The notes: generated by a model from the letters alone, not told the origin. A stretch of DNA of 64,000 nucleotides from Candidatus Woykebacteria bacterium (GCA_040876265.1 JBBDPN010000001.1:246208-310207); one strand, 5' to 3'; shown: positions 39,775-60,582, numbered from the stretch's first letter. Made by a program: numbers and translations.

Positions 39775-40033
39775 TTATCAGTTCGGAATCTACTGCATTA
39801 GTCACTTTTTCAAGAAATTCAAGAGATGGATTGGCGTTACCAGATTCCAGTCTAGCAATAGCAGATTGTTTGGTTCCAATCTTTTTCGCAAGCTGTTCTT
39901 GGGTGACACCTTTATTTAATCTTGCCTCAATCAGTTGAGAGATGATTTGGTAGTGAGGTTTCAAACTTTTGTATTCGCCAGAAACCTTTTTATCCTGAAG
40001 TAATTCTTTTTTTAGAGTTCTCCAACTTTTCAT
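39761..40033 (-). CDS. XRE-family HTH antitoxin (HigA-like)
   Basis: Has LNKGVTQEQLAKKIGTKQSAIARLESG, the Cro/C1 HTH. It lies downstream of the toxin gene, as in higBA. Confidence 0.7.
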   Translation of the reverse strand: MKSWRTLKKELLQDKKVSGEYKSLKPHYQIISQLIEARLNKGVTQEQLAKKIGTKQSAIARLESGNANPSLEFLEKVTNAVDSELIIQTK

Positions 40034-40062
40034 AGTGAGATAAATATAACATATATGTTATA

Positions 40063-40395
40063 TTAAGTCAAACTGCTTAGTCGTTTCAAAGCAATATCAA
40101 TTTCTTTCCTGGGCGTTTTTTGTTGCTTTTTAATAAATCCATGAAGCAGATAGATATCTTTTCTAATAAAACTATATAAAATTCGTACCTCTTGTTTCCC
40201 TCGCACTCTTAACTCATATAAACCTGAAGTTAATTTCTTTGAATGCGGCATCCCAAGCTGGTTACCATATTTTTCTAATAAATCGATTATGTGAATTGTT
40301 TTGGCGATAGTTGACTTATCTAAAGACGCAATGAGTTCTTCAACAGGTTTTTCATCACGAGAGGTTTCAAATAAGATAATATTCCAAGGCATCAT
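40063..40395 (-). CDS. Type II toxin, RelE/ParE superfamily (HigB / phage Gp49-like, PF05973)
   Basis: Has ...LYELRVRGKQEVRILYSFIRKDIYLLHGFIKKQQKTPRKEIDIALKR, the Gp49/HigB consensus. Confidence 0.65.
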   Translation of the reverse strand: MMPWNIILFETSRDEKPVEELIASLDKSTIAKTIHIIDLLEKYGNQLGMPHSKKLTSGLYELRVRGKQEVRILYSFIRKDIYLLHGFIKKQQKTPRKEIDIALKRLSSLT

Positions 40396-40570
40396 TAATT
40401 ATTTTAACAAAGTTGAAACCTTAAGAATAGTTTGATTTATCAGTGCAATTTTTGGTGAACCTTAGTTTAATGCTGACAAACGAGATTATAGATCAATTGG
40501 TGGAAACTTTCAAAGGCTGGAGTACAGTTTTCAAGGCTTACCCTCTGCAAAACTCCGCTTGCTAGCTCAC

Positions 40571-40807
40571 CTAAGTGGTAGTAATTCCATCATTCCTGGT
40601 GGCTGATCTTATTTTCTCAACTAAGTCTTCTGTCGAGGTACCAGGTCCATATTCTACATCTAAATCTTCTGCGATGGACTTCAACTTCTCCTGTGCTTCA
40701 GGACTATCGTCTTTTGCAAGGGATTGGAGATATTCAAAATCCGGTTGGCCGTGCTCATTTCGCCAATCTTCCATCTCTTCTATTTTTTTATCATTATTTT
40801 GTTGCAT
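40571..40807 (-). CDS. Small acidic hypothetical protein
   Basis: 78-aa frame from the internal Met (MQQNNDKK...). No recognisable domain. Confidence 0.3.
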   Translation of the reverse strand: MQQNNDKKIEEMEDWRNEHGQPDFEYLQSLAKDDSPEAQEKLKSIAEDLDVEYGPGTSTEDLVEKIRSATRNDGITTT

Positions 40808-41153
40808 ATTTTTTAATATTATAACACCAAAGATAGAATTCTTACTTTGATATAACGGTTGTTTTTCTTTAGGTTCAAAGTTCGAATCAACAATGGTTGT
40901 AGTCTTTTTTGGCGAAAAACAGAGGCTAAAAATCTGCAAAAATTTGGTGAGCCTGCTGCCCCTAGAATGAAACTCGCTCGAGGCTCATTTACTTAAAGTT
41001 TACCACACTTTCAGGCAATATAACGTCGCTGCCTGACCAATCGGCATTTAAGTTGAATTTTCGCAAAAGAAAAACGACCATTAATAATAACCTATAATTT
41101 TACTTATAAGAATATTTTTGGTATAATTAGCTCTAATCTGCCCAAGTAAAATT

Positions 41154-43001
41154 ATGTTATTTGGGTTGAGCGCATTTCTTTCAGCTGCCTTTTTATACAG
41201 TTCTTTTGGCTTTGCTTTTGCAATTGTTCTTATCGCGATCCGTAACCTATACCGTACTAATTGGACTCTAAGTAAAGAACTTACTCTTTTGCTGCTTTCT
41301 CAAATAGGCTCACTAGGGTTTAGTTATCTTGCGGTCCAACATTTAGGTTTGTCTCTATTGTTTCCTTTATCAATAAATATAATATTTCTACTTGTTACGG
41401 TCAGATTTCTGTCAAATTATTCTTGGATTGGTAGATATTTTCTTATTTCCAATTTCTCCCTTCTTTTTTTTGGATTGCTGTGGAGTATTTGGTTTATTTA
41501 TTCGATACCAATAAGCCCTCTGACTCGTATGCTAATTCTTTTAGCGGCTCCACTTGCTGTACTAACTATTCCTAGTGCTATAGTTCAATTCATCGAACAA
41601 TTTGAAGTCTTGTGTCGTAAAAACTGGATTAGACCGAGAGAAAGCTTGCCAATTACTCCAAGAGATTATTATCCTAAAGTTTCCCTGCAGGTGCCGATTT
41701 ATTCTGAGCCACCTGAAATCGTGATAGAAACCTTAGAGGCTCTATCTAAAATAGATTACCCAAACTTCGAGGTATTGGTAGTAGATAACAACACAAAAGA
41801 TTTAAACCTCTGGAGACCTGTTAGGGAGCATTGTCAAAAGCTAGGGGATAAATTTAGGTTTTTCCATCTTGATTCCTTGCCAGGTGCAAAAGCGGGTGCA
41901 TTAAACTTTGCCTTGATGGTTGCCGCACCTGATGCGGAAATAATCGGGGTGATTGACGCTGATTATCACGCTCAGCCAGACTTTTTAAAATCGCTCATCG
42001 GTTACTTTGATGATCCTAAAATAGGTTTTGTGCAGGCTCCACACGACTACAGAGACTGGGAGAATAACGCCTATCTACGTATGTGTTATTACGAATACAA
42101 AATTTTCTTTCACACTACCATGGTAGCTATTAACGAACGTGATGCTGCCATGACAGTCGGGACGATGTGTTTAATTAGGCGTCAAGCATTAGAAGAGGCT
42201 GGCGGTTGGGCTGAGTGGTGTGTGACTGAAGATTCGGAACTAGCTATTCGTATTCATGCCGTTGGGTACTCCTCAGTTTATCTGACCGAGTCTTACGGTA
42301 AGGGGCTTATTCCCGAAACTTTCGAGGGTTACAAAAACCAGCGTTACCGCTGGACGGCTGGCCCTGTACAGGAATTTAAACACCATTTTAATCTTTTGAT
42401 GCTTTGGCCCTGGAAGAAACCTTCTTTGTTGACTCTAGTGCAGCAGACACACCACCTCAATCACGGTTTAGATAGGGTTACAGTTGGTTTGGGGTTTTTA
42501 CTTATTCCTTTAGGGTTTGGTGTTATAGCTTCAATGGTTTTCCACCGCGAGGTGGTCCAAGTACCTTTTGAACTGTGGCTAGCTGCCACTGTACTTCTGA
42601 TATCAGGAGTTTTTTTAAATTGGCTTCTCTACAAAGTTGTCCTGGGTGCTTCCTTGAAAGATACAATTGGGGCACTTATAGCAAGTAAGGCCTTAAGTCA
42701 CACTATTTCTTTGGCTAGCTTTAGGGCAATTTTCAAAGAAAAAATGCCTTGGAATAGAACCGACAAGTTTAAGGCTAGTTCAAGGCTACTTAGAGCATTA
42801 GAAACTACGAAGGTCGAATTGTTACTAGGCTCAGGCATTTTTGTATTTATAGTCTTTGCTTTTCTGTTAATGCCCTTACCAGGGTTGTTATTAATGTTTT
42901 TGATCGGGATGGGTTATAAAGGTTTTGATTACTTATCTGCTTCACTAGTAGCTGTTTTATCTGAATTAAGTATAAACAAAGATAAAACCAAGGTAATTTA
43001 G
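41154..43001 (+). CDS. Membrane-embedded family-2 glycosyltransferase (processive beta-glycan synthase-like)
   Basis: TM N-terminus and C-terminus around a GT-A core with the D, DAD, and Q(R/Q)xRW (QRYRW) motifs. Confidence 0.8.
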   Translation: MLFGLSAFLSAAFLYSSFGFAFAIVLIAIRNLYRTNWTLSKELTLLLLSQIGSLGFSYLAVQHLGLSLLFPLSINIIFLLVTVRFLSNYSWIGRYFLISNFSLLFFGLLWSIWFIYSIPISPLTRMLILLAAPLAVLTIPSAIVQFIEQFEVLCRKNWIRPRESLPITPRDYYPKVSLQVPIYSEPPEIVIETLEALSKIDYPNFEVLVVDNNTKDLNLWRPVREHCQKLGDKFRFFHLDSLPGAKAGALNFALMVAAPDAEIIGVIDADYHAQPDFLKSLIGYFDDPKIGFVQAPHDYRDWENNAYLRMCYYEYKIFFHTTMVAINERDAAMTVGTMCLIRRQALEEAGGWAEWCVTEDSELAIRIHAVGYSSVYLTESYGKGLIPETFEGYKNQRYRWTAGPVQEFKHHFNLLMLWPWKKPSLLTLVQQTHHLNHGLDRVTVGLGFLLIPLGFGVIASMVFHREVVQVPFELWLAATVLLISGVFLNWLLYKVVLGASLKDTIGALIASKALSHTISLASFRAIFKEKMPWNRTDKFKASSRLLRALETTKVELLLGSGIFVFIVFAFLLMPLPGLLLMFLIGMGYKGFDYLSASLVAVLSELSINKDKTKVI

Positions 43002-43297: not shown

Positions 43298-43372
43298 TGG
43301 TGAGCCCGGTGGGATTCGAACCCACAACGCACAGCTTAAAAGGCTGTCGCTCTACCGTTGAGCTACGGGCCC
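43298..43372 (-). tRNA. tRNA-Lys (anticodon UUU), CCA encoded
   Basis: Reverse complement GGGCCCGTAGCTCAACGGTAGAGCGACAGCCTTTTAAGCTGT...GGTTCGAATCC..GGGCTCACCA. Confidence 0.8.
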
Positions 43373-53864: not shown

Positions 53865-54518
53865 CTACCAAAGGTCAGTCCTCTCCTCTTCTCTCCTGGC
53901 CATACGTTTGACGTTGTCTTTGTGCATGATCACTATGTAAGCGCTTGCCAAGAGTGCAGCCAGACCATACCACCAAGAAATTTTCCGGCGGGCAGCCAAG
54001 CGTACCGCGTAGTAGCCGCCGACAATGGATCCAGTGATAGAACCCAGGGACACAATCCGGCTCGAGGCGATTACACCGGTAAACACTCCGACTGCCAGCT
54101 GGATGATATCCCAGAGTCTTCTTTCCCGGTGGGCGGCTGCGAAGAACGTCCCCGCCGTGGTCGAGACTGCTTTCCCACCTTGGAACTTCAGGAAAATCGG
54201 TTTTGTATGTCCAAGGGTTGCGGCGCCTCCAACAAGAAGATGCAACCGGTGATCATTAGGACGAAGCTTTATGGCTACTCGGACCGGTATGTATGCTTTG
54301 GCAACGTCGCAACCGGCCGCAACGATAGCCCAGAAAAGGGCCCGACGAGTACCTAACTTGTACCGTAGCACCCGGAATACGTTTGTACCACCGGTTGCGC
54401 CACTTCCATTCTCTCGAAGATCAGTGCTAGTTAGGATCTTGGTTATGATCCACCCAAAGGGGATGGAACCAAGAAGATATGCACTGGCCAGAAGCATAAT
54501 TCGACCCACTCGAACCAC
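53865..54518 (-). CDS. plsY: Glycerol-3-phosphate acyltransferase PlsY
   Basis: Has GSIPFGW..., GSGATGGTN, and H..KPIFLKFQGGKAVST. About 54% GC, well above the local background. Confidence 0.8.
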   Translation of the reverse strand: MVRVGRIMLLASAYLLGSIPFGWIITKILTSTDLRENGSGATGGTNVFRVLRYKLGTRRALFWAIVAAGCDVAKAYIPVRVAIKLRPNDHRLHLLVGGAATLGHTKPIFLKFQGGKAVSTTAGTFFAAAHRERRLWDIIQLAVGVFTGVIASSRIVSLGSITGSIVGGYYAVRLAARRKISWWYGLAALLASAYIVIMHKDNVKRMARREEERTDLW

Positions 54519-54558
54519 TCCCCTTTCCGTTGAGATTTGCGGTATTGTATGCTAAAAT

Positions 54559-54609
54559 AGGTTGCTTTGCAACCTGCGTTAAGAAACAAACCTAAGGTTG
54601 CTTTGCAAT
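54559..54609. repeat. Duplicated hairpin element (AGGTTGC-TTT-GCAACCT, then a partial copy)
   Basis: Perfect 7-bp-stem hairpin at 54559-54575. The unit aggttgctttgcaa repeats at 54595-54608. Confidence 0.4.
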
Positions 54610-54654: not shown

Positions 54655-54731
54655 GGCCCCGTCGTCTAGTGGCCTAGGATACCTGGTTTTCATCCAGGAG
54701 ATCGCGGGTTCGAATCCCGCCGGGGTCACCA
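54655..54731 (+). tRNA. tRNA-Glu (anticodon UUC), CCA encoded
   Basis: GGCCCCGTCGTCTAGTGGCCTAGGATACCTGGTTTTCATCCAGG...GGTTCGAATCC..GGGGTCACCA. Confidence 0.8.
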
Positions 54732-54734
54732 ATA

Positions 54735-54765
54735 CGAACACCTTGAGGTGTTCGGGGTGCTTAAA
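54735..54765 (+). terminator. Putative terminator after tRNA-Glu
   Basis: CGAACACC-TTGA-GGTGTTCG hairpin followed by a weak U-tract. Confidence 0.3.
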
Positions 54766-54913
54766 TTAGCCTCAACGGTCTTGCAGTATCTCACTTTTCT
54801 AATCCCAATGTTCGAACCAAAATCGGCCACTTTGCTTCCTTTCCAGCTTCAAATCTGCTAAAATGGACAGGCTTTATCTTGCCTGAACGACATAAAATTT
54901 CTTACTAGTTAAT

Positions 54914-57900
54914 ATGAAAGAGTTCTTAGAGAACTATATAAAATCAATTTCAACTAAATTTTCCCACGAGGAAACCAGTGAAATGGGTTACCGTTCAGAC
55001 TTTGAGACCCTACTCAAAAAGATATTTGAATCTATTAATGTTAAGCGGATAGATCACGACGCACGGGCCAGGGAAGGCAATAAACCTGATTTTATTGTTA
55101 TCAAGGGAGAGGTGCCTATCTTATATATTGAAGCAAAAAATATCGGTACTTCTCTAGACCAAGTGGAAAAATCAGAGCAGATGGCCCGATACTTTGGTTA
55201 TGCCAATCTGGTGCTTACGGATTATGTGGAGTTTCGCTTTTATAGAAACGGTATCCGCTATGGCGAACCGGTAAAAATTGCTAATTACGATGTAAAAGGC
55301 AGAACAATTATCCCTTTACCAAAAAATTACGAATATCTTGCTAGGACACTACTAGATTTTACTCAAACACATAAGGAGCCTATAAAATCCGGTGAACATC
55401 TTTCCAAAATAATGGGTGGTAAAGCGCAAAGAATCCGCGATAATGTCCGCCAGTTCTTAGCGACAGAATCGGATAAAAACGCGGAACTTACTCGAGTTTA
55501 CGAAACTATCAAAAAGCTTCTTGTGCATGATCTAACCAAAGAATCGTTTGCCGATATGTACGCTCAAACCCTCGTTTATGGACTTTTTGCCGCCCGCTAT
55601 CACGATAAAGAGCCGGAGACTTTTTCTCGCCAGGAAGCGCGAGATCTCATTCCAAATTCTAACCCACTTCTTAGACATTTCTTTGATCACATAGTAGGTC
55701 CCAACTTTGATAAACGACTCGAACACATCGTTAACGAACTTTGCGAAGTCTTTTCCCACGCTGATGTAAACCAGCTAATGCAGGAATACTTTAAAAATGG
55801 GTCTAAAGAAAAAACCCAAAAAGGCGTAGACCCTGTTATTCACTTTTACGAAGATTTCCTAAAAGAATATAATCCTGCACTACGGAAAAGAATGGGAGCC
55901 TACTATACACCGCTTCCGGTGGTACAGTTTATAGTACGCTCTGTTGATTATTTACTTAAAAAAGAGTTTGATTTGCCTGGTGGTCTTGCTGACACCTCAA
56001 AGACAACCGATGGTCTCCATAAAGTTCAGATACTTGATCCAGCATGTGGCACCGGCACCTTTATCAGCGCAGTCATCGGCACAATTTACGCGGAGCTAAT
56101 AAAGAATGGGCAAAAAGGTCGTTGGCCGGCTTATGTCCATCATGATTTATTACCTCGTATATACGGGTTTGAGCTAATGATGGCTCCCTATACGATAGCC
56201 CATCTAAAGCTTGGAATAGCTTTCAGACAAACAAAGTTCTGGGACTTCCACCGGCGTCTTGGGATTTATCTTACAAATTCCCTTGAAGAAACTCCAATCC
56301 AAGAAGATTTATTTACGGCCTTTGGTTTTGCTGAAAGTATTGCTGAGGAGTCGAGAGAAGCTTCAATCATAAAGAACGAAACTCCAATTATGGTAGTTAT
56401 CGGCAATCCTCCATATGCTGGTATAAGTAGCAACGAAACCCCATACGCTAATAGTTTGGTTGAGCGTTACAAGGTTGAACCCGGTGGTCAGCAGAAGTTG
56501 CAAGAGCGTAAGCACTGGCTTAATGATGATTATGTGAAATTTATTGGTATGGCCGAGAGCATGATCGAAAAGACTGGTATTGGTATCGTTGCAATGATTA
56601 CCAACAACGGTTATTTAGATAACCCAACTTTTAGAGGAATGCGTTGGCATATTGCAAAAACATTTGACAAGGTTTTTTTACTGGATTTACATGGTAATTC
56701 AAAGAAAAAGGAAACTGCTCCTGATGGTACTAAGGACGAAAATGTTTTCGATATTATGCAGGGGGTTGGTATTATGCTAGCGGTCAAGATGAGTAGAAAA
56801 AGTCCTGATAAATTAGGAGAAATCTATCATGCTGAACTCTATGGAACACGACAACATAAATTTAAGGAGCTGTCAAAATCGCCGAATTGGGAAAAAATTA
56901 CCCTCGATTCCAAAATGGCCTATTTCGTACCAAAGAATACCAAGGGACAAGGTGAATACGAAAAAGGCATTAGACTTGAAGAATTGTTTTCTGTTAATAG
57001 TGTCGGGATAGTCACAGGTAAGGACAAGATAAACATCGGCTTTAGCAAGAATGAAATTATTGAACGCTTTAGGTTCATTTCAGAAAACGGCGAACAATCA
57101 ATAAGGGATAGATTTCACTTGTCGAGCAAGGACGCTCGGGATTGGACAGTATCTACTGCAAAAAGAGATGCAGAGAATAATTTTTCGGAGAATAAAGTAG
57201 TTAAGTGTTCATACAGACCTTTCGATGACAGATACACCTTTTATTCTGGAAATTCGCGAGGGGTATATGCAAGCCCACAAAGAACGGTAATGCGACATTA
57301 TTTACTAGGCGAAAACTACGGCCTCTTGTTCAGTAGAATGACAAAAGGAAAACCTTTTGCTCACGCATTTATCACTAGTCATATCTCAGAGGTGATTTTT
57401 CTATCCCCACTAACTGGAACCAATGCTTTTAATGCCCCTCTCTATATCTATTCTGAGGATGGTTTACGAACAACTAATCTAAAAAAGGAAGTTGTTTTGG
57501 AGATTGAAAAGATTGTTGGAAAATCTTCCCCGGAGGATATTTTTGACTATGTTTATGCTGTTCTTTACTTACCTAATTATCGTGAGAAGTACCAAGAATT
57601 TCTGAAAATTGATTTTCCGAGAGTTCCGTATCCAAAAGATAAAAAACAATTTCAATCGCTAATTAAACTTGGAAGAGAATTAAGAGCGTTGCATTTACTT
57701 GAATCACCAAAGTTGAATAAATTTATCACCACTTACCCTGAAAGTGGCGATGATGTCGTAGAAAAAGTTGAGTACAAGGATGGTAATGTATTTATCAATG
57801 CAAAACAGTATTTTGGGAAGGTACCGGAGGTAGCTTGGAACTTTTGGATCGGTGGTTATCAGCCAGCCCAAAAATGGCTAAAGGATCGCAAAGGTAGAAC

Positions 57901-57997
57901 CCTCACCAATGAAGATATAGAACATTATCAGAAGATAATAGTTGCACTAACGGAAACAGGTAAGATAATGGGGGAGATAGATAAAGTAGTTCAGTAA
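54914..57997 (+). CDS. Fused Type IIG (MmeI/PglX-like) restriction endonuclease / N6-adenine DNA methyltransferase
   Basis: 1027 aa. N-terminal PD-(D/E)xK-like motif (PDFIVIKG...YIEAK). Gamma-class MTase motif I DPACGTGTF and motif IV NPPY (VIGNPPYAGISS). C-terminal WNFWIGGYQPAQKWLKDRKGR..L...D..HY region, typical of this family. Confidence 0.55.
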   Translation: MKEFLENYIKSISTKFSHEETSEMGYRSDFETLLKKIFESINVKRIDHDARAREGNKPDFIVIKGEVPILYIEAKNIGTSLDQVEKSEQMARYFGYANLVLTDYVEFRFYRNGIRYGEPVKIANYDVKGRTIIPLPKNYEYLARTLLDFTQTHKEPIKSGEHLSKIMGGKAQRIRDNVRQFLATESDKNAELTRVYETIKKLLVHDLTKESFADMYAQTLVYGLFAARYHDKEPETFSRQEARDLIPNSNPLLRHFFDHIVGPNFDKRLEHIVNELCEVFSHADVNQLMQEYFKNGSKEKTQKGVDPVIHFYEDFLKEYNPALRKRMGAYYTPLPVVQFIVRSVDYLLKKEFDLPGGLADTSKTTDGLHKVQILDPACGTGTFISAVIGTIYAELIKNGQKGRWPAYVHHDLLPRIYGFELMMAPYTIAHLKLGIAFRQTKFWDFHRRLGIYLTNSLEETPIQEDLFTAFGFAESIAEESREASIIKNETPIMVVIGNPPYAGISSNETPYANSLVERYKVEPGGQQKLQERKHWLNDDYVKFIGMAESMIEKTGIGIVAMITNNGYLDNPTFRGMRWHIAKTFDKVFLLDLHGNSKKKETAPDGTKDENVFDIMQGVGIMLAVKMSRKSPDKLGEIYHAELYGTRQHKFKELSKSPNWEKITLDSKMAYFVPKNTKGQGEYEKGIRLEELFSVNSVGIVTGKDKINIGFSKNEIIERFRFISENGEQSIRDRFHLSSKDARDWTVSTAKRDAENNFSENKVVKCSYRPFDDRYTFYSGNSRGVYASPQRTVMRHYLLGENYGLLFSRMTKGKPFAHAFITSHISEVIFLSPLTGTNAFNAPLYIYSEDGLRTTNLKKEVVLEIEKIVGKSSPEDIFDYVYAVLYLPNYREKYQEFLKIDFPRVPYPKDKKQFQSLIKLGRELRALHLLESPKLNKFITTYPESGDDVVEKVEYKDGNVFINAKQYFGKVPEVAWNFWIGGYQPAQKWLKDRKGRTLTNEDIEHYQKIIVALTETGKIMGEIDKVVQ

Positions 57998-58019
57998 GAA
58001 AAGTGGTTCCGAAGTAAAT

Positions 58020-59318
58020 TTAGTTTATGGTTGCGGTTTCTCTATCTATCGGTATTTCAGGTTTGCTTTCTTCAACTATCTTAGTTTTTACCCGTGCCTT
58101 TTCATCTTTAGAAATTTCATCTGCCATATCATCAACTATCGAAAAGACTTCCAGCTTTAAATCTTCAAGATTACCTTTTGTTTTTTCTATCCCAGTACCA
58201 ATACTAGATAGAGAACTTTTTATAGATGAAATCGAGTTTATCTTACTTCTTATTTGTCCTAGATAACCTTCCAATTTAACTAGATTAACCTTTTTATCTT
58301 CGGTTTTTATTTCGTTGAGCGCTTCCAACCTAGCAAACTTATAGGCAACCTCTAGGGCGGTGGAATCCTTGGTTTCTTTATCAAAAACGCATAATATTCT
58401 TCCACCTGGATAGGCTCTAAAGTTTCCACTCTCTCCAGGAGCGTTTTCTAATTTACTAAAGACTCCTATCGCGACTTGAGCATCCCTATTTTGTTTAGCT
58501 TCATCTAGTTCTTTCAAAATTGAAGGAAGGGTTTTCTGTTGATCCTTCGCTTCCAGTACAATACTCAAACTGTTTCCACCTGAATGGTGCGGATTTATCT
58601 TCGACAGCACATCACCCGTCTTAGAATTAAGAATTTTTCCATTTATGTTACTAGTATCAATGACATTATCATCTAAAATTTTTGCTATATTGTTGATAAT
58701 CTGTAACACTAAGTCTTGATAAACAACACCCTTAGCCGTTCCTTTTTCTTCAACCTCTGCCACAGCCTCTTTAATTTTGAGAGCTTTTTCGATATTGTCT
58801 ATTTTATCCGTCAATTCTTTTTTTAATCTAAATATTGGACTACCTGGATCTGAACTATCTAGTAGTTTATATATTACAGATCCGTCACCTTCAAAGTGCC
58901 TTTTGAAAATATCGGAAAGCTTACCTAGGGCGCTGTTCCTTTGGTTCTCATCAAAAAGATCCTGTAGCTTACCACCTTCGCCAAGATACTCTTTTAAAAC
59001 AAGAGGCATAACACCGTTTTCGCTAAAAATTTTATCTAGTCTATTGTCTATTTCTGTGGTGGTATCCTCTAAAAGTTTTTCAACGTGATTTTTTACCTTG
59101 CTAAATTCTTTTTCTACATAATCTACATTTTCAGTTACGCCCACATTTTTCATAGCAATCAAACCCACCTTTAGGGCCTTCCTTACTGTTTCTGCCTTTT
59201 CCTTTTCGGCTAAACCTTCAACTATTGAGGCTACTTCAGCATCCTCAATAATCAAATCTGAAATATATACCTGATTTTTCTCGACTTTTAATTTCATAAG
59301 GTGTTTATTATAAGACAC
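58020..59318 (-). CDS. RmuC-like coiled-coil protein with PD-(D/E)xK-type C-terminal domain
   Basis: 432 aa. Coiled-coil N-terminal half. The C-terminus (KGVVYQDLVLQIINNI..., GDVLSKI...SIVLEAKDQQ, VAIGVFSKLENAPGE) resembles the RmuC nuclease-like core. A TTGAAC-16-TTATAAT promoter lies just upstream. Confidence 0.35.
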   Translation of the reverse strand: MSYNKHLMKLKVEKNQVYISDLIIEDAEVASIVEGLAEKEKAETVRKALKVGLIAMKNVGVTENVDYVEKEFSKVKNHVEKLLEDTTTEIDNRLDKIFSENGVMPLVLKEYLGEGGKLQDLFDENQRNSALGKLSDIFKRHFEGDGSVIYKLLDSSDPGSPIFRLKKELTDKIDNIEKALKIKEAVAEVEEKGTAKGVVYQDLVLQIINNIAKILDDNVIDTSNINGKILNSKTGDVLSKINPHHSGGNSLSIVLEAKDQQKTLPSILKELDEAKQNRDAQVAIGVFSKLENAPGESGNFRAYPGGRILCVFDKETKDSTALEVAYKFARLEALNEIKTEDKKVNLVKLEGYLGQIRSKINSISSIKSSLSSIGTGIEKTKGNLEDLKLEVFSIVDDMADEISKDEKARVKTKIVEESKPEIPIDRETATIN

Positions 59319-59453
59319 TTAAGCCAGGCGTTCAATAGCCAGCACAGTAACACTTCACAATCTTGACAGTCTCTTTTAGACTTTCCATTAATGCGCTATC
59401 TCAATGACGAGCCAATAATGAATGGTGAAAAAGGGCCAATTTATTAGTCTGGG

Positions 59454-59609
59454 CTAGTCTTTCCAGACATATTTGTATCCTATTGGCGCAATCGGTTTTA
59501 TAGGCCGAATTGGTTTAATCGGTTTGATTGGTTTGATTGGCTGGATTGGCCTAATCGGCTTTATAGTCTTTATTTTGAATTTATTATCCCTTACCAGTTT
59601 CCACGGCAT
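59454..59609 (-). CDS. 51-aa (KPI)n tripeptide-repeat micropeptide
   Basis: Translation by hand: MPWKLVRDNKFKIKTIKPIRPIQPIKPIKPIKPIRPIKPIAPIGYKYVWKD. A GGGGGTGA SD-like sequence lies 8 nt upstream. Same strand as the lexA-like and DUF3892 genes, and directly downstream of them. Confidence 0.35.
   Translation of the reverse strand: MPWKLVRDNKFKIKTIKPIRPIQPIKPIKPIKPIRPIKPIAPIGYKYVWKD
59481..59570. repeat. Ten tandem 9-bp repeats (consensus aatcggttt/gattggttt)
   Basis: Directly visible in the sequence. These units encode the KPI repeats on the minus strand. Confidence 0.75.
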
Positions 59610-59636: not shown

Positions 59637-59930
59637 TTAGATGGGACATTCGTCCAAAGCAAGTAAATTGTTTGGATAATCTCCATCAGCGGTTGTTTTA
59701 ATGTATTTATTCCCTTTAGCACTAATAGCAACGATGACTTTCACAGGGTCGTTGTTAACATCAACGTAAAAATCATACTTACCGTTTTCTATGTAGTTTA
59801 TTGCTTCCTGTTGGGTAATCTTCCATCGACTACCGTCTGGATTTACACCTCCAACATGGGTAATTGCCTCGTATGGGCTGTTTCTATTGTCTTTGTGGAT
59901 ACAAGATATTCTTACTGACATCTGATACAC
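59637..59930 (-). CDS. DUF3892 domain protein
   Basis: Has ITHVGG....G..W..T..EAI..IE.G...FYV......V.V......G..Y..T..DG...NNLL.L.EC, the DUF3892 consensus. Confidence 0.65.
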
Positions 59931-59937
59931 TTCCTTA

Positions 59938-60564
59938 TCAATCTAAATTTGGAATAGTTGTAACGACTACCCCCTGAATTCTAAAGTTGCCTTCTAAAAT
60001 TATTGGCTTGTGAGATTTGTTTGACGATCTGGGTTTCAAAACCACCACATTTCCAGTACGTTGAAATTCCTTGATTGTTGCATCATCATCAATAAGGGCT
60101 ACAACTTTATCCCCGTCTTTTGCTACAGCTTGCTGTCGGATTAGTACCAGGTCGCCATCTTTAATTCCAACCTCATCCATGGAATCACCACTTACCTTTA
60201 GCAAGAAGTACTTAGATCCAGGTTCTGCTATGGTCGTGGAAACAGGTAAATACCCTTCAACGTTTTCCTCTGCAAATAGTGGATTACCACATGAAACCAT
60301 ACCAACTATCGGTACATCAATTGTTTGATATATGTGCTGTCCCAGATCCGGGTTTAAAACTAGTTTGTAATGCCCGTCTTCAAATTTTTTGATGATGCCT
60401 TTTTGTTGCAGGGTAAAGAGTATCTCCTGAACAGATTTTATTGATTTCGACTCCAAAAGCCCCATCAGCTCCCTTATTGAGGGGCTTCTTCCCTTATGAA
60501 CTGTGTGGTTTCTAATATGTTTTATTGCCTCTATTTGTTTCGGCGTGAACTCATCGGGGTTCAT
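59938..60564 (-). CDS. Second LexA-like S24-peptidase repressor (UmuD-like Cys-Gly cleavage site)
   Basis: N-terminal wHTH (about 75 aa). Cleavage region ...VSCGNPLF with Cys-Gly, as in UmuD, in place of the Ala-Gly of the housekeeping LexA. Ser nucleophile in SGDSM and Lys in ATIKEF. Confidence 0.8.
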
Positions 60565-60566
60565 AT

Positions 60567-60582
60567 TGGTACGATTGTACCA
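60567..60582. promoter_or_regulatory. Palindromic operator TGGTAC-gatt-GTACCA directly upstream of the lexA-like start
   Basis: 16-bp near-perfect palindrome located 3 nt upstream of the ATG, overlapping a TACAAT -10-like hexamer. The GTAC-N4-GTAC architecture resembles the cyanobacterial-type LexA box RGTAC-N3-DGTWCB. Confidence 0.45.

Follow-up and report, generated by a model that had tools for sequence, protein, structure and literature searches.

A solitary Type IIG restriction-modification enzyme and a convergent DUF2130-related nuclease next to tRNA-Glu in a Candidatus Woykebacteria genome

We analysed a stretch of 64,000 nucleotides from a Candidatus Woykebacteria bacterium (GCA_040876265.1 JBBDPN010000001.1:246208-310207; hereafter the window, in whose coordinates all positions are given), in which a tRNA-Glu gene is followed by the gene of a 1027-amino-acid restriction-modification enzyme and, convergent with it, by the gene of a nuclease of 425 or 432 amino acids. 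The genome is metagenome-assembled and belongs to the Candidate Phyla Radiation; both proteins are recorded on a contig of 532 kb. A preliminary description had presented the two as a restriction-modification enzyme paired with an accessory nuclease. The reading that we consider probable is that they are two independent accessory genes sharing a small, variable, tRNA-adjacent segment. The most interesting result of the analysis was a by-product, the clade-specific association of DrdV-like enzymes with DUF2130 proteins, often together with an ABC/OLD-type ATPase.

The 1027-amino-acid protein (54914-57997, plus strand) is predicted, on solid grounds, to be an intact and solitary fused Type IIG restriction-modification enzyme; PADLOC, Pfam and structure matches place it with the single-chain Type IIG/IIL enzymes resembling DrdV. 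One polypeptide carries, in this order, a PD-ExK nuclease, a connector, an N6-adenine methyltransferase and a Type_ISP_C domain. The PADLOC assignment REase_MTase_IIG reached a total of 916 bits over two matched stretches of the protein, and the PADLOC model PDLC03631 spanned residues 3-993. The nuclease motif, P58-D59...E73-x-K75 (E73-A-K75; 55085-55138, plus strand), was recognised by residue conservation among 135 relatives, and an HSDR_N match over residues 29-112 scored 21.7 bits, under the Pfam cut-off of 25.1. The methyltransferase domain is of the gamma class (residues ~309-600; 55838-56713, plus strand) and was identified by the Pfam models N6_Mtase, Eco57I and MmeI_Mtase, the last of these borderline (27.0 bits for a cut-off of 27), and by alignment with the structure 7lo5. 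Within it lie the conserved motif I, DPACGTGTF (residues 375-383; 56036-56062, plus strand), and motif IV, NPPY (residues 498-501; 56405-56416, plus strand).

In the alignment of 135 relatives, P58, D59, E73, K75, D375, G379 and N498-P-P-Y501 were 100% conserved, DPACGTGTF was invariant but for the variable Cys378, and the C-terminal block GGY..KWLKDR was 96-100% conserved. The earlier proposal of a fused Type IIG restriction-methyltransferase is thus borne out, and a check for lost catalytic residues or a degenerate NPPY found all of them intact. The target-recognition domain that follows (residues 690-1020; 56981-57973, plus strand) contains GGYQPAQKWLKDR and was assigned to Type_ISP_C (PF18135) at 279.5 bits, with the motif WIGGYQPAQKWLKDR at residues 978-992. 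This region had been called MmeI/PglX-type, and while the conserved motif is there, the domain is Type_ISP_C by Pfam; apart from MmeI_Mtase, no MmeI model of Pfam matched the enzyme at E<=0.01. Pfam gave no match to a helicase or ATPase domain either.

The best solved relative of the enzyme was 7lo5 (E=2.3e-50 over residues 311-928), with which it has in common the DPAxGTGTF core of motif I and the NPPY of motif IV, whereas its N-terminal 310 residues were left unaligned by phmmer. Judging by its length, we take the 1029-residue chain of PDB entries 7lo5 and 7lvv to be DrdV. DrdV and the window enzyme are of near-equal length (1029 and 1027 amino acids) and have an identical domain order, namely PD-ExK nuclease, connector, gamma-class methyltransferase and specificity domain. 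DrdV, which has been analysed as a single chain, recognises an asymmetric site and methylates it on one strand; it cuts at a fixed distance, and only when several DNA-bound molecules have assembled, and its methyltransferase and specificity domains have been called 'highly similar' to their Type ISP counterparts (preprint 10.1101/2021.01.06.425610).

The methyltransferase and specificity domains of the Type ISP enzymes LlaBIII and LlaGI were homologous to the window enzyme as well (E=1.4e-36 and 7e-44), but both proteins are ~400-550 residues longer, and they matched only from residue 833 (LlaBIII) and from residue 669 (LlaGI), past the helicase part. The defining feature of Type ISP enzymes, a RecA-like ATPase/translocase, is missing from the window enzyme, and for this reason a translocation-collision mechanism would be impossible for it and the name given to it by NCBI, 'type ISP restriction/modification enzyme', is inappropriate. 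The same NCBI label is found on many other helicase-less homologues, apparently through the Type_ISP_C domain, and some helicase-less homologues bear the JGI name 'predicted helicase'; both names are misleading. The MmeI family likewise fuses nuclease and methyltransferase and modifies one strand, but its specificity and C-terminal models were unmatched by the window enzyme. The likeness to PglX of the bacteriophage exclusion (BREX) systems lies in the methyltransferase: the match scored 18.6 bits and covered the methyltransferase core only, and the PglZ and BrxC genes of BREX are missing next to the window enzyme. As the preliminary description had stated, no separate methyltransferase, PglZ or BrxC was found among the neighbours scanned against Pfam (PlsY, DUF3892, LexA and YraN).

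Two Borrelia burgdorferi enzymes, BBQ67 (on lp56) and BBE02 (on lp25), belong to the same family as the window enzyme. The lp56 homologue was 36% identical over 99% of the window enzyme, and we infer that it is bbq67 from its plasmid location rather than from a locus tag. Both bbq67 and bbe02 are single-gene systems, the loss of which raises transformation efficiency (PMC4466376). The Borrelia enzymes are distant (36%) and fall outside the subclade, at least 60% identical to the window enzyme, that associates with DUF2130.

By homology with DrdV and the Borrelia enzymes, the window enzyme would restrict DNA autonomously, with no need of a partner protein. Its C-terminal domain would read a short asymmetric site, at which the methyltransferase would mark one adenine on one strand and so protect the host DNA, and cleavage of unmodified foreign DNA, at a fixed distance from that site, would await the assembly of several enzyme molecules bound to DNA.

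The convergent gene encodes a protein related to DUF2130, with a PD-(D/E)xK core, as judged from homologue alignment and hhalign (58020-59297, minus strand, for 425 amino acids, or 432 when read from the GTG at 59318; residue numbers below follow the 432-residue form). An alignment of 45 homologues showed K196, G197, D217, E256, K258 and R278 to be invariant and D236 nearly so. These 45 sequences define the motif D236...E256-x-K258 (58545-58613, minus strand) and, together with an AlphaFold model of the core, the predicted nuclease core at residues 196-337 (58308-58733, minus strand). The core-only model had a predicted local distance difference test (pLDDT) score of 91.3 and the topology helix, three strands, helix, strand; its top fold matches were PD-(D/E)xK nucleases (BamHI, EcoT38I, the Cap4 nuclease domain, BbvCI, DdmD and Can2), none of them significant by itself (all at E>=0.026).

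Searched as a whole, the protein matched nothing in PADLOC or NCBIfam, nor in Pfam with the threshold relaxed to E<=10; among PHROGs the match to phrog_5553 was insignificant (E=0.062), and the sole sequence match in the PDB was spurious, an engineered helical-bundle protein aligned over helical regions. DUF2130 was matched by 11 of the 45 family members (best E=1e-07), the window protein itself giving no direct match, and hhalign against eight canonical DUF2130 proteins returned a probability of 98.8% (E=5e-17) over 230 columns comprising the core and the C-terminal helices. On the same core, archaeal plasmid relatives gave a weak Mrr_cat signal. The PD-(D/E)xK core put forward earlier is borne out by the alignment, the DUF2130 profile match and the core model; by its sequence the protein is a remote DUF2130 relative, below the threshold of Pfam membership. 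With DUF2130 (PF09903/COG4487) it shares the GD...ExK motif, a similar size and helical regions flanking the core, but its N-terminal 190 residues differ, and while the neighbours of canonical DUF2130 genes are those of defence islands, the window family lies near superfamily 1 (SF1) helicases and replication or repair genes.

The label RmuC-like failed. RmuC (PF02646/COG1322) has a helical N-terminal region followed by a C-terminal nuclease domain, it shares the PD-(D/E)xK superfamily with the window nuclease, and the neighbours of some members of the window family fit a recombination role. RmuC identity was nevertheless rejected: PF02646 did not match the window protein at E<=10 and was outside the 25 families most matched by the 45 members, the family signal being that of DUF2130. 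Nor is the protein a universally conserved housekeeping RmuC. DUF2130 and RmuC are separate PD-(D/E)xK families, with the function of DUF2130 listed as unknown (Steczkiewicz et al. 2012, PMC3424549).

The nuclease family is large, with more than 1000 clusters at 50% identity; an exhaustive profile search yielded 3589 representatives at E<=1e-3, of which 1188 also passed E<=1e-30. A rare family, as suggested by the 46 matches obtained initially, was thereby rejected. Members occur in bacteria of the Candidate Phyla Radiation (CPR), Firmicutes, Chloroflexi and archaea, and are named 'hypothetical protein' in all source names inspected. A phage origin of the family was rejected too, no relatives being present in IMG/VR or among GenBank phages. 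The window protein thus represents a large, DUF2130-related nuclease family for which Pfam has no model.

The 432-residue reading frame occupies 58020-59318 on the minus strand and meets the enzyme gene in the convergent, tail-to-tail arrangement noted previously, with 22 nt between the stop codons (57998-58019), a spacer devoid of a terminator-like hairpin. The nuclease gene had also been credited with its own consensus promoter. A promoter-like TTGAAC-17-TATAAT does exist (59307-59335, minus strand; a consensus match only), ending 9 nt before the ATG at 59297, but since it overlaps the GTG start at 59318, this promoter and the 432-residue frame are mutually exclusive, and such sites were not enriched in the region (18 found, 16.1 expected from shuffled sequence). 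The ATG at 59297, giving 425 amino acids, is the likelier start; it is the choice made by NCBI, and homologues begin there. Combined with the promoter-like site, it would yield a nearly leaderless mRNA. The description as a coiled-coil protein holds in part, for both ends of the protein are helical, but a classical long coiled coil does not account for most of its length.

We then asked in which company the two families are found elsewhere. On the nuclease side the sample consisted of nine other contexts, drawn from a family of more than 1000 clusters and including the closest relatives (65% and 61% identity). Neither a Type IIG gene nor an adjacent stand-alone DNA methyltransferase gene was present in any of them (0/9). 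Conversely, the hidden Markov model (HMM) of the window nuclease family, also when its thresholds were relaxed, detected no member in the 83 other enzyme loci. A borderline match in locus L051 was discarded as an SMC-type ATPase with coiled-coil similarity only. Co-occurrence with Type IIG genes, a check that the preliminary description had proposed, is therefore negative for the protein's own family and positive for its canonical DUF2130 relatives, which are treated below.

The neighbours that the nuclease family does have include a 5'-3' exonuclease, an SF1 helicase together with FtsK, PCNA, glycosylases, a Top1-type zinc-ribbon protein and ribosomal operons. Such company would suit a host enzyme of DNA repair or recombination, an analogue of RmuC working with helicases, between which and tRNA-Glu the restriction-modification gene had inserted itself. 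Specifically, an exonuclease gene of the 5'-3' type lies 45 nt upstream in L011; in L114 a 1513-amino-acid SF1 helicase (AAA_11/AAA_12 plus a Top1-type zinc ribbon) is encoded 24 nt upstream, with FtsK downstream; a like SF1 helicase follows at 78 nt downstream on a Halobaculum plasmid; in L001 the zinc-ribbon protein is downstream and the glycosylases are nearby; in L111 the PCNA gene is divergent; and in the window itself the apparent lexA operon lies upstream of the nuclease gene. We nonetheless regard a repair role as very unlikely. The distribution of the family is sporadic, with no synteny even between the two closest relatives, the GC content at third codon positions (GC3) of the nuclease gene is about three standard deviations under the window mean, and the candidate LexA operator GGTACAATCGTACC is not upstream of it. 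Moreover, distant relatives are found on archaeal plasmids, one context of the family is near an integrase and an OLD ATPase, and the compact genomes of CPR bacteria put housekeeping genes beside almost everything. As an observation in its own right, a nuclease-family gene adjoins an AAA_11/AAA_12 SF1 helicase gene both in a CPR genome (L114:566-6375) and on the Halobaculum plasmid (L104:6968-10449), and in these contexts the two may form a nuclease-helicase pair.

A different picture emerged for canonical DUF2130 genes, the most recurrent neighbour family of the window enzyme's subclade. They stood beside the enzyme gene in 8/30 loci with at least 60% identity to the window enzyme and in 0/53 below 60%; after dereplication the counts were 7/26 and 0/47 (Fisher p=4e-4). 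In all eight cases the DUF2130 gene was co-directional with the enzyme gene, and the loci were scattered across the subclade. They include L022, which holds the nearest enzyme relative among the fetched loci (67.6%), and the core HMM of the window family directly detected the DUF2130 partners in L061 and L022 (E=2.6e-5 and 3.7e-4). In L032 a gap of 23 nt separates the end of the DUF2130 gene from the enzyme gene that follows. The gene intervening between enzyme and DUF2130 was an OLD/AriA/GajA-like ATPase in L021 (Shapirobacteria, in the order enzyme, OLD ATPase, DUF2130), PDC-S46 in L040, PDC-S06/AAA_13 in L039 and L066, the SocA antitoxin in L038 and, in others, proteins of unknown function.

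A recurrent cassette can be recognised in these loci, with a Type IIG enzyme, an ABC/SMC-type ATPase and a canonical DUF2130 protein encoded in this order and direction, and with the DUF2130 reading frame abutting or overlapping the ATPase gene (cassette loci L021:8001-14153, L040:9965-16457, L039:264-6942, equal to L066, L022:8001-13941 and L032:635-4961). DUF2130, which adjoins one Type IIG subclade more often than any other family does and is in operon-like contact with OLD, PDC-S46 and PDC-S06 ATPase genes, is a candidate defence component. The PADLOC version that we searched had no match for DUF2130, and in the searchable literature on DUF2130/COG4487/PF09903 we found no link to restriction or phage defence.

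These loci raise the possibility that the window pair, too, is a functional module, in which a nuclease of the DUF2130 superfamily backs up or extends the restriction enzyme, for example by degrading the products of its cleavage or by serving as a reserve whenever restriction is blocked; the window pair would in that case be a divergent version of the enzyme-ATPase-DUF2130 cassettes, convergent and lacking the ATPase. The same-strand, scattered association of canonical DUF2130 with this subclade points that way, as do the 23-nt spacing in L032, the constancy of enzyme and DUF2130 around a varying intervening gene, the presence of one cassette in a CPR genome (Shapirobacteria) and the homology of the window nuclease family to DUF2130, most directly to the type seen in L022 and L061. 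On a Methanomethylovorans plasmid, the gene of a protein with the same N-terminal region as the nuclease comes after a methyltransferase and a helicase gene. Set against this, the window's own nuclease family was beside such an enzyme in none of the nine contexts or 83 enzyme loci, the window pair is convergent while the canonical cases are co-directional in 8/8, and the ATPase gene is missing. DrdV, moreover, is single-chain and the Borrelia homologues are single-gene systems, and canonical DUF2130 also occurs by Gabija-like, reverse transcriptase and NB-ARC genes, so that the linkage may be one of co-location in defence islands. On annotated plasmids, specifically, canonical DUF2130 genes were found with no such enzyme, beside a Gabija-like pair and a methyltransferase, a reverse-transcriptase-like gene, or an NB-ARC protein and an ATPase. 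The enzyme homologues on plasmids were all less than 45% identical and fall outside the subclade in which the association with DUF2130 was seen.

On balance we hold a functional module in the window to be rather unlikely. The wider proposal is one that we find a little more doubtful again: that the DrdV-like subclade and DUF2130 nucleases, often with an ABC/OLD-type ATPase gene between them, would constitute an accessory defence module not found in the searchable literature, of which the convergent, ATPase-less pair of the window would be a divergent CPR version, its nuclease acting downstream of restriction or as its back-up. Should the pair cooperate after all, it would be a simple system, of two genes, in which to study how restriction is extended by accessory nucleases.

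The reading that we prefer, that the two genes are independent, is favoured because the window's own branch of nucleases is unlinked to such enzymes elsewhere, because the genes are convergent and no ATPase gene accompanies them, and because the enzyme family works alone and canonical DUF2130 resembles a general resident of defence islands. It is further supported by the difference in GC3 between the enzyme gene (0.353) and the nuclease gene (0.282; window 0.377+-0.031) and by the nuclease gene having a promoter-like site of its own. Each gene would then form a transcription unit of its own, the two units converging at their 3' ends. The 425- or 432-residue protein would be a metal-dependent PD-(D/E)xK DNA nuclease from a sporadically distributed family, acting as an independent accessory enzyme of DNA processing or of a defence type, and not as a subunit or obligate partner of the restriction enzyme.

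Several points weigh on the other side. Chance adjacency of two particular genes is unlikely, given about two neighbours among several hundred genes; canonical DUF2130 is enriched beside exactly this enzyme subclade (7/26 against 0/47); and the nearest enzyme relative, L022, has a DUF2130 partner which, like that of L061, the core HMM of the window family detects. The contexts sampled, in addition, were nine from a nuclease family of more than 1000 clusters.

How the enzyme gene came to its position is a separate question. Its family is very large, with thousands of members (7998/8000 scored candidates at E<=1e-30), and the window enzyme is an ordinary one. Among the 120 clusters listed, the 119 others were 61-68% identical to it and nearly all full-length, the named sources being Patescibacteria, Shapirobacteria, Actinobacteria and Bacteroidota; this similar identity across phyla indicates horizontal spread. 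The preliminary description took the pairing to be new to CPR-type genomes. As far as the enzyme is concerned this is incorrect, since annotated full-length homologues with 61-65% identity exist in both Patescibacteria and Shapirobacteria. When the 83 other enzyme loci were reduced to 73 by dereplication, a tRNA lay within ~3.7 kb upstream of the enzyme gene in 14-15 of them and downstream in 4. Serine recombinase genes were closely upstream of the enzyme gene in 5/83 loci, and in L020, L043 and L044 they sat between the tRNA and the enzyme gene.

In the window, the tRNA-Glu gene (anticodon TTC; 54655-54731, plus strand, by ARAGORN) is 182 nt 5' of the enzyme gene, which confirms that the two are side by side, and horizontal transfer probably brought the enzyme gene to this place beside a tRNA, which is typical of its family. 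Of the integration hotspot suggested earlier, the recurrent tRNA adjacency thus stands, but neither an integration scar nor an integrase was found here: a search with 25-mers and 16-mers of the tRNA-Glu 3' end, allowing up to three mismatches, gave no downstream copy and only an unrelated tRNA-Lys at 43298.

The surroundings also suggested that the whole 6-kb segment from tRNA-Glu to lexA, comprising the enzyme, the nuclease, DUF3892 and an S24-type repressor, could be the remnant of one mobile element that has lost its recombinase. Consistent with this are the recurrence of tRNA-adjacent insertion in the enzyme family, in three loci with a serine recombinase in between, the S24/LexA-like genes found downstream of enzyme homologues (L031:11431-12258, shared by L031 and L033; L074:4938-5681; L093:13525-14301), the match of DUF3892 to the phage family phrog_8224, and the lowered GC content of 57-60 kb (0.357-0.376, as against ~0.42 for the window). 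Against it, the interval 54.7-60.7 kb was devoid of a recombinase reading frame, the tRNA 3' end had no direct repeat, and neither inverted nor other repeats were found to flank the segment in a general search. LexA, moreover, scores as a true equivalog, and the codon usage of the enzyme gene is host-like, its GC3 being in line with that of the window. A single element is therefore possible but doubtful in our view.

In several unrelated loci a gene for an S24/LexA-like repressor follows the Type IIG homologue at a distance of 0.4-1.3 kb, and such a gene is also found downstream of the enzyme gene in the window, which suggests an enzyme gene travelling on elements with S24-type repressors.

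Beyond the nuclease gene, the DUF3892 gene (97 amino acids; 59637-59930, minus strand; phrog_8224 at E=3e-14) and the lexA gene (59938-60564, minus strand) are 7 nt apart on the same strand, an apparent operon. LexA scored 156.6 bits with TIGR00498, above the equivalog cut-off of 110.95. The far boundary of the segment is a housekeeping block, yraN/rnhB/rplS, and the other flank of tRNA-Glu holds plsY and a reading frame resembling a membrane pyrophosphatase.

The perfect palindrome GGTAC-N4-GTACC (60568-60581) overlaps the -10 box of lexA and is a candidate LexA operator; the exact core GTAC-N4-GTAC occurs at the lexA site only, with no second copy in the window. SOS control of the nuclease or enzyme gene was rejected, the candidate operator being solely at the lexA promoter. 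The pairing of DUF3892 with LexA was absent from seven LexA loci of other genomes, and DUF3892 as a conserved LexA partner was rejected, as it was seen in none of the LexA loci fetched. The loci recovered in a genome scan for LexA relatives were all from Nitrospira, Bacteroidota, Vogelbacteria and Hyphomicrobiaceae (43-56% identity), with Woykebacteria absent; the most similar LexA among the matches recovered was from Nitrospira (56%), not from the CPR.

Finally, some features of composition and repetition may be recorded. Directly 3' of tRNA-Glu, a perfect 8-bp hairpin, CGAACACC-TTGA-GGTGTTCG, can be read from the sequence (54735-54754, plus strand). On the 5' side of the tRNA there is a 14-nt perfect direct repeat, AGGTTGCTTTGCAA, in two copies 36 nt apart (54559-54608), which adjoins a promoter-like TTGAGA-17-TAAAAT (54530-54558). 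The 318-nt spacer between the DUF3892 and nuclease genes contains the tandem repeat ATTGGTTTG, present 4.6 times (59494-59560) and nested in an 18-nt period repeated 3.7 times. The plsY gene (53865-54518) deviates in composition, with a GC content of 0.535 and a GC3 of 0.541 (window 0.417 and 0.377+-0.031), and the GC minimum of the window lies at 40001-42000 (0.344-0.372), which may be a foreign segment too.

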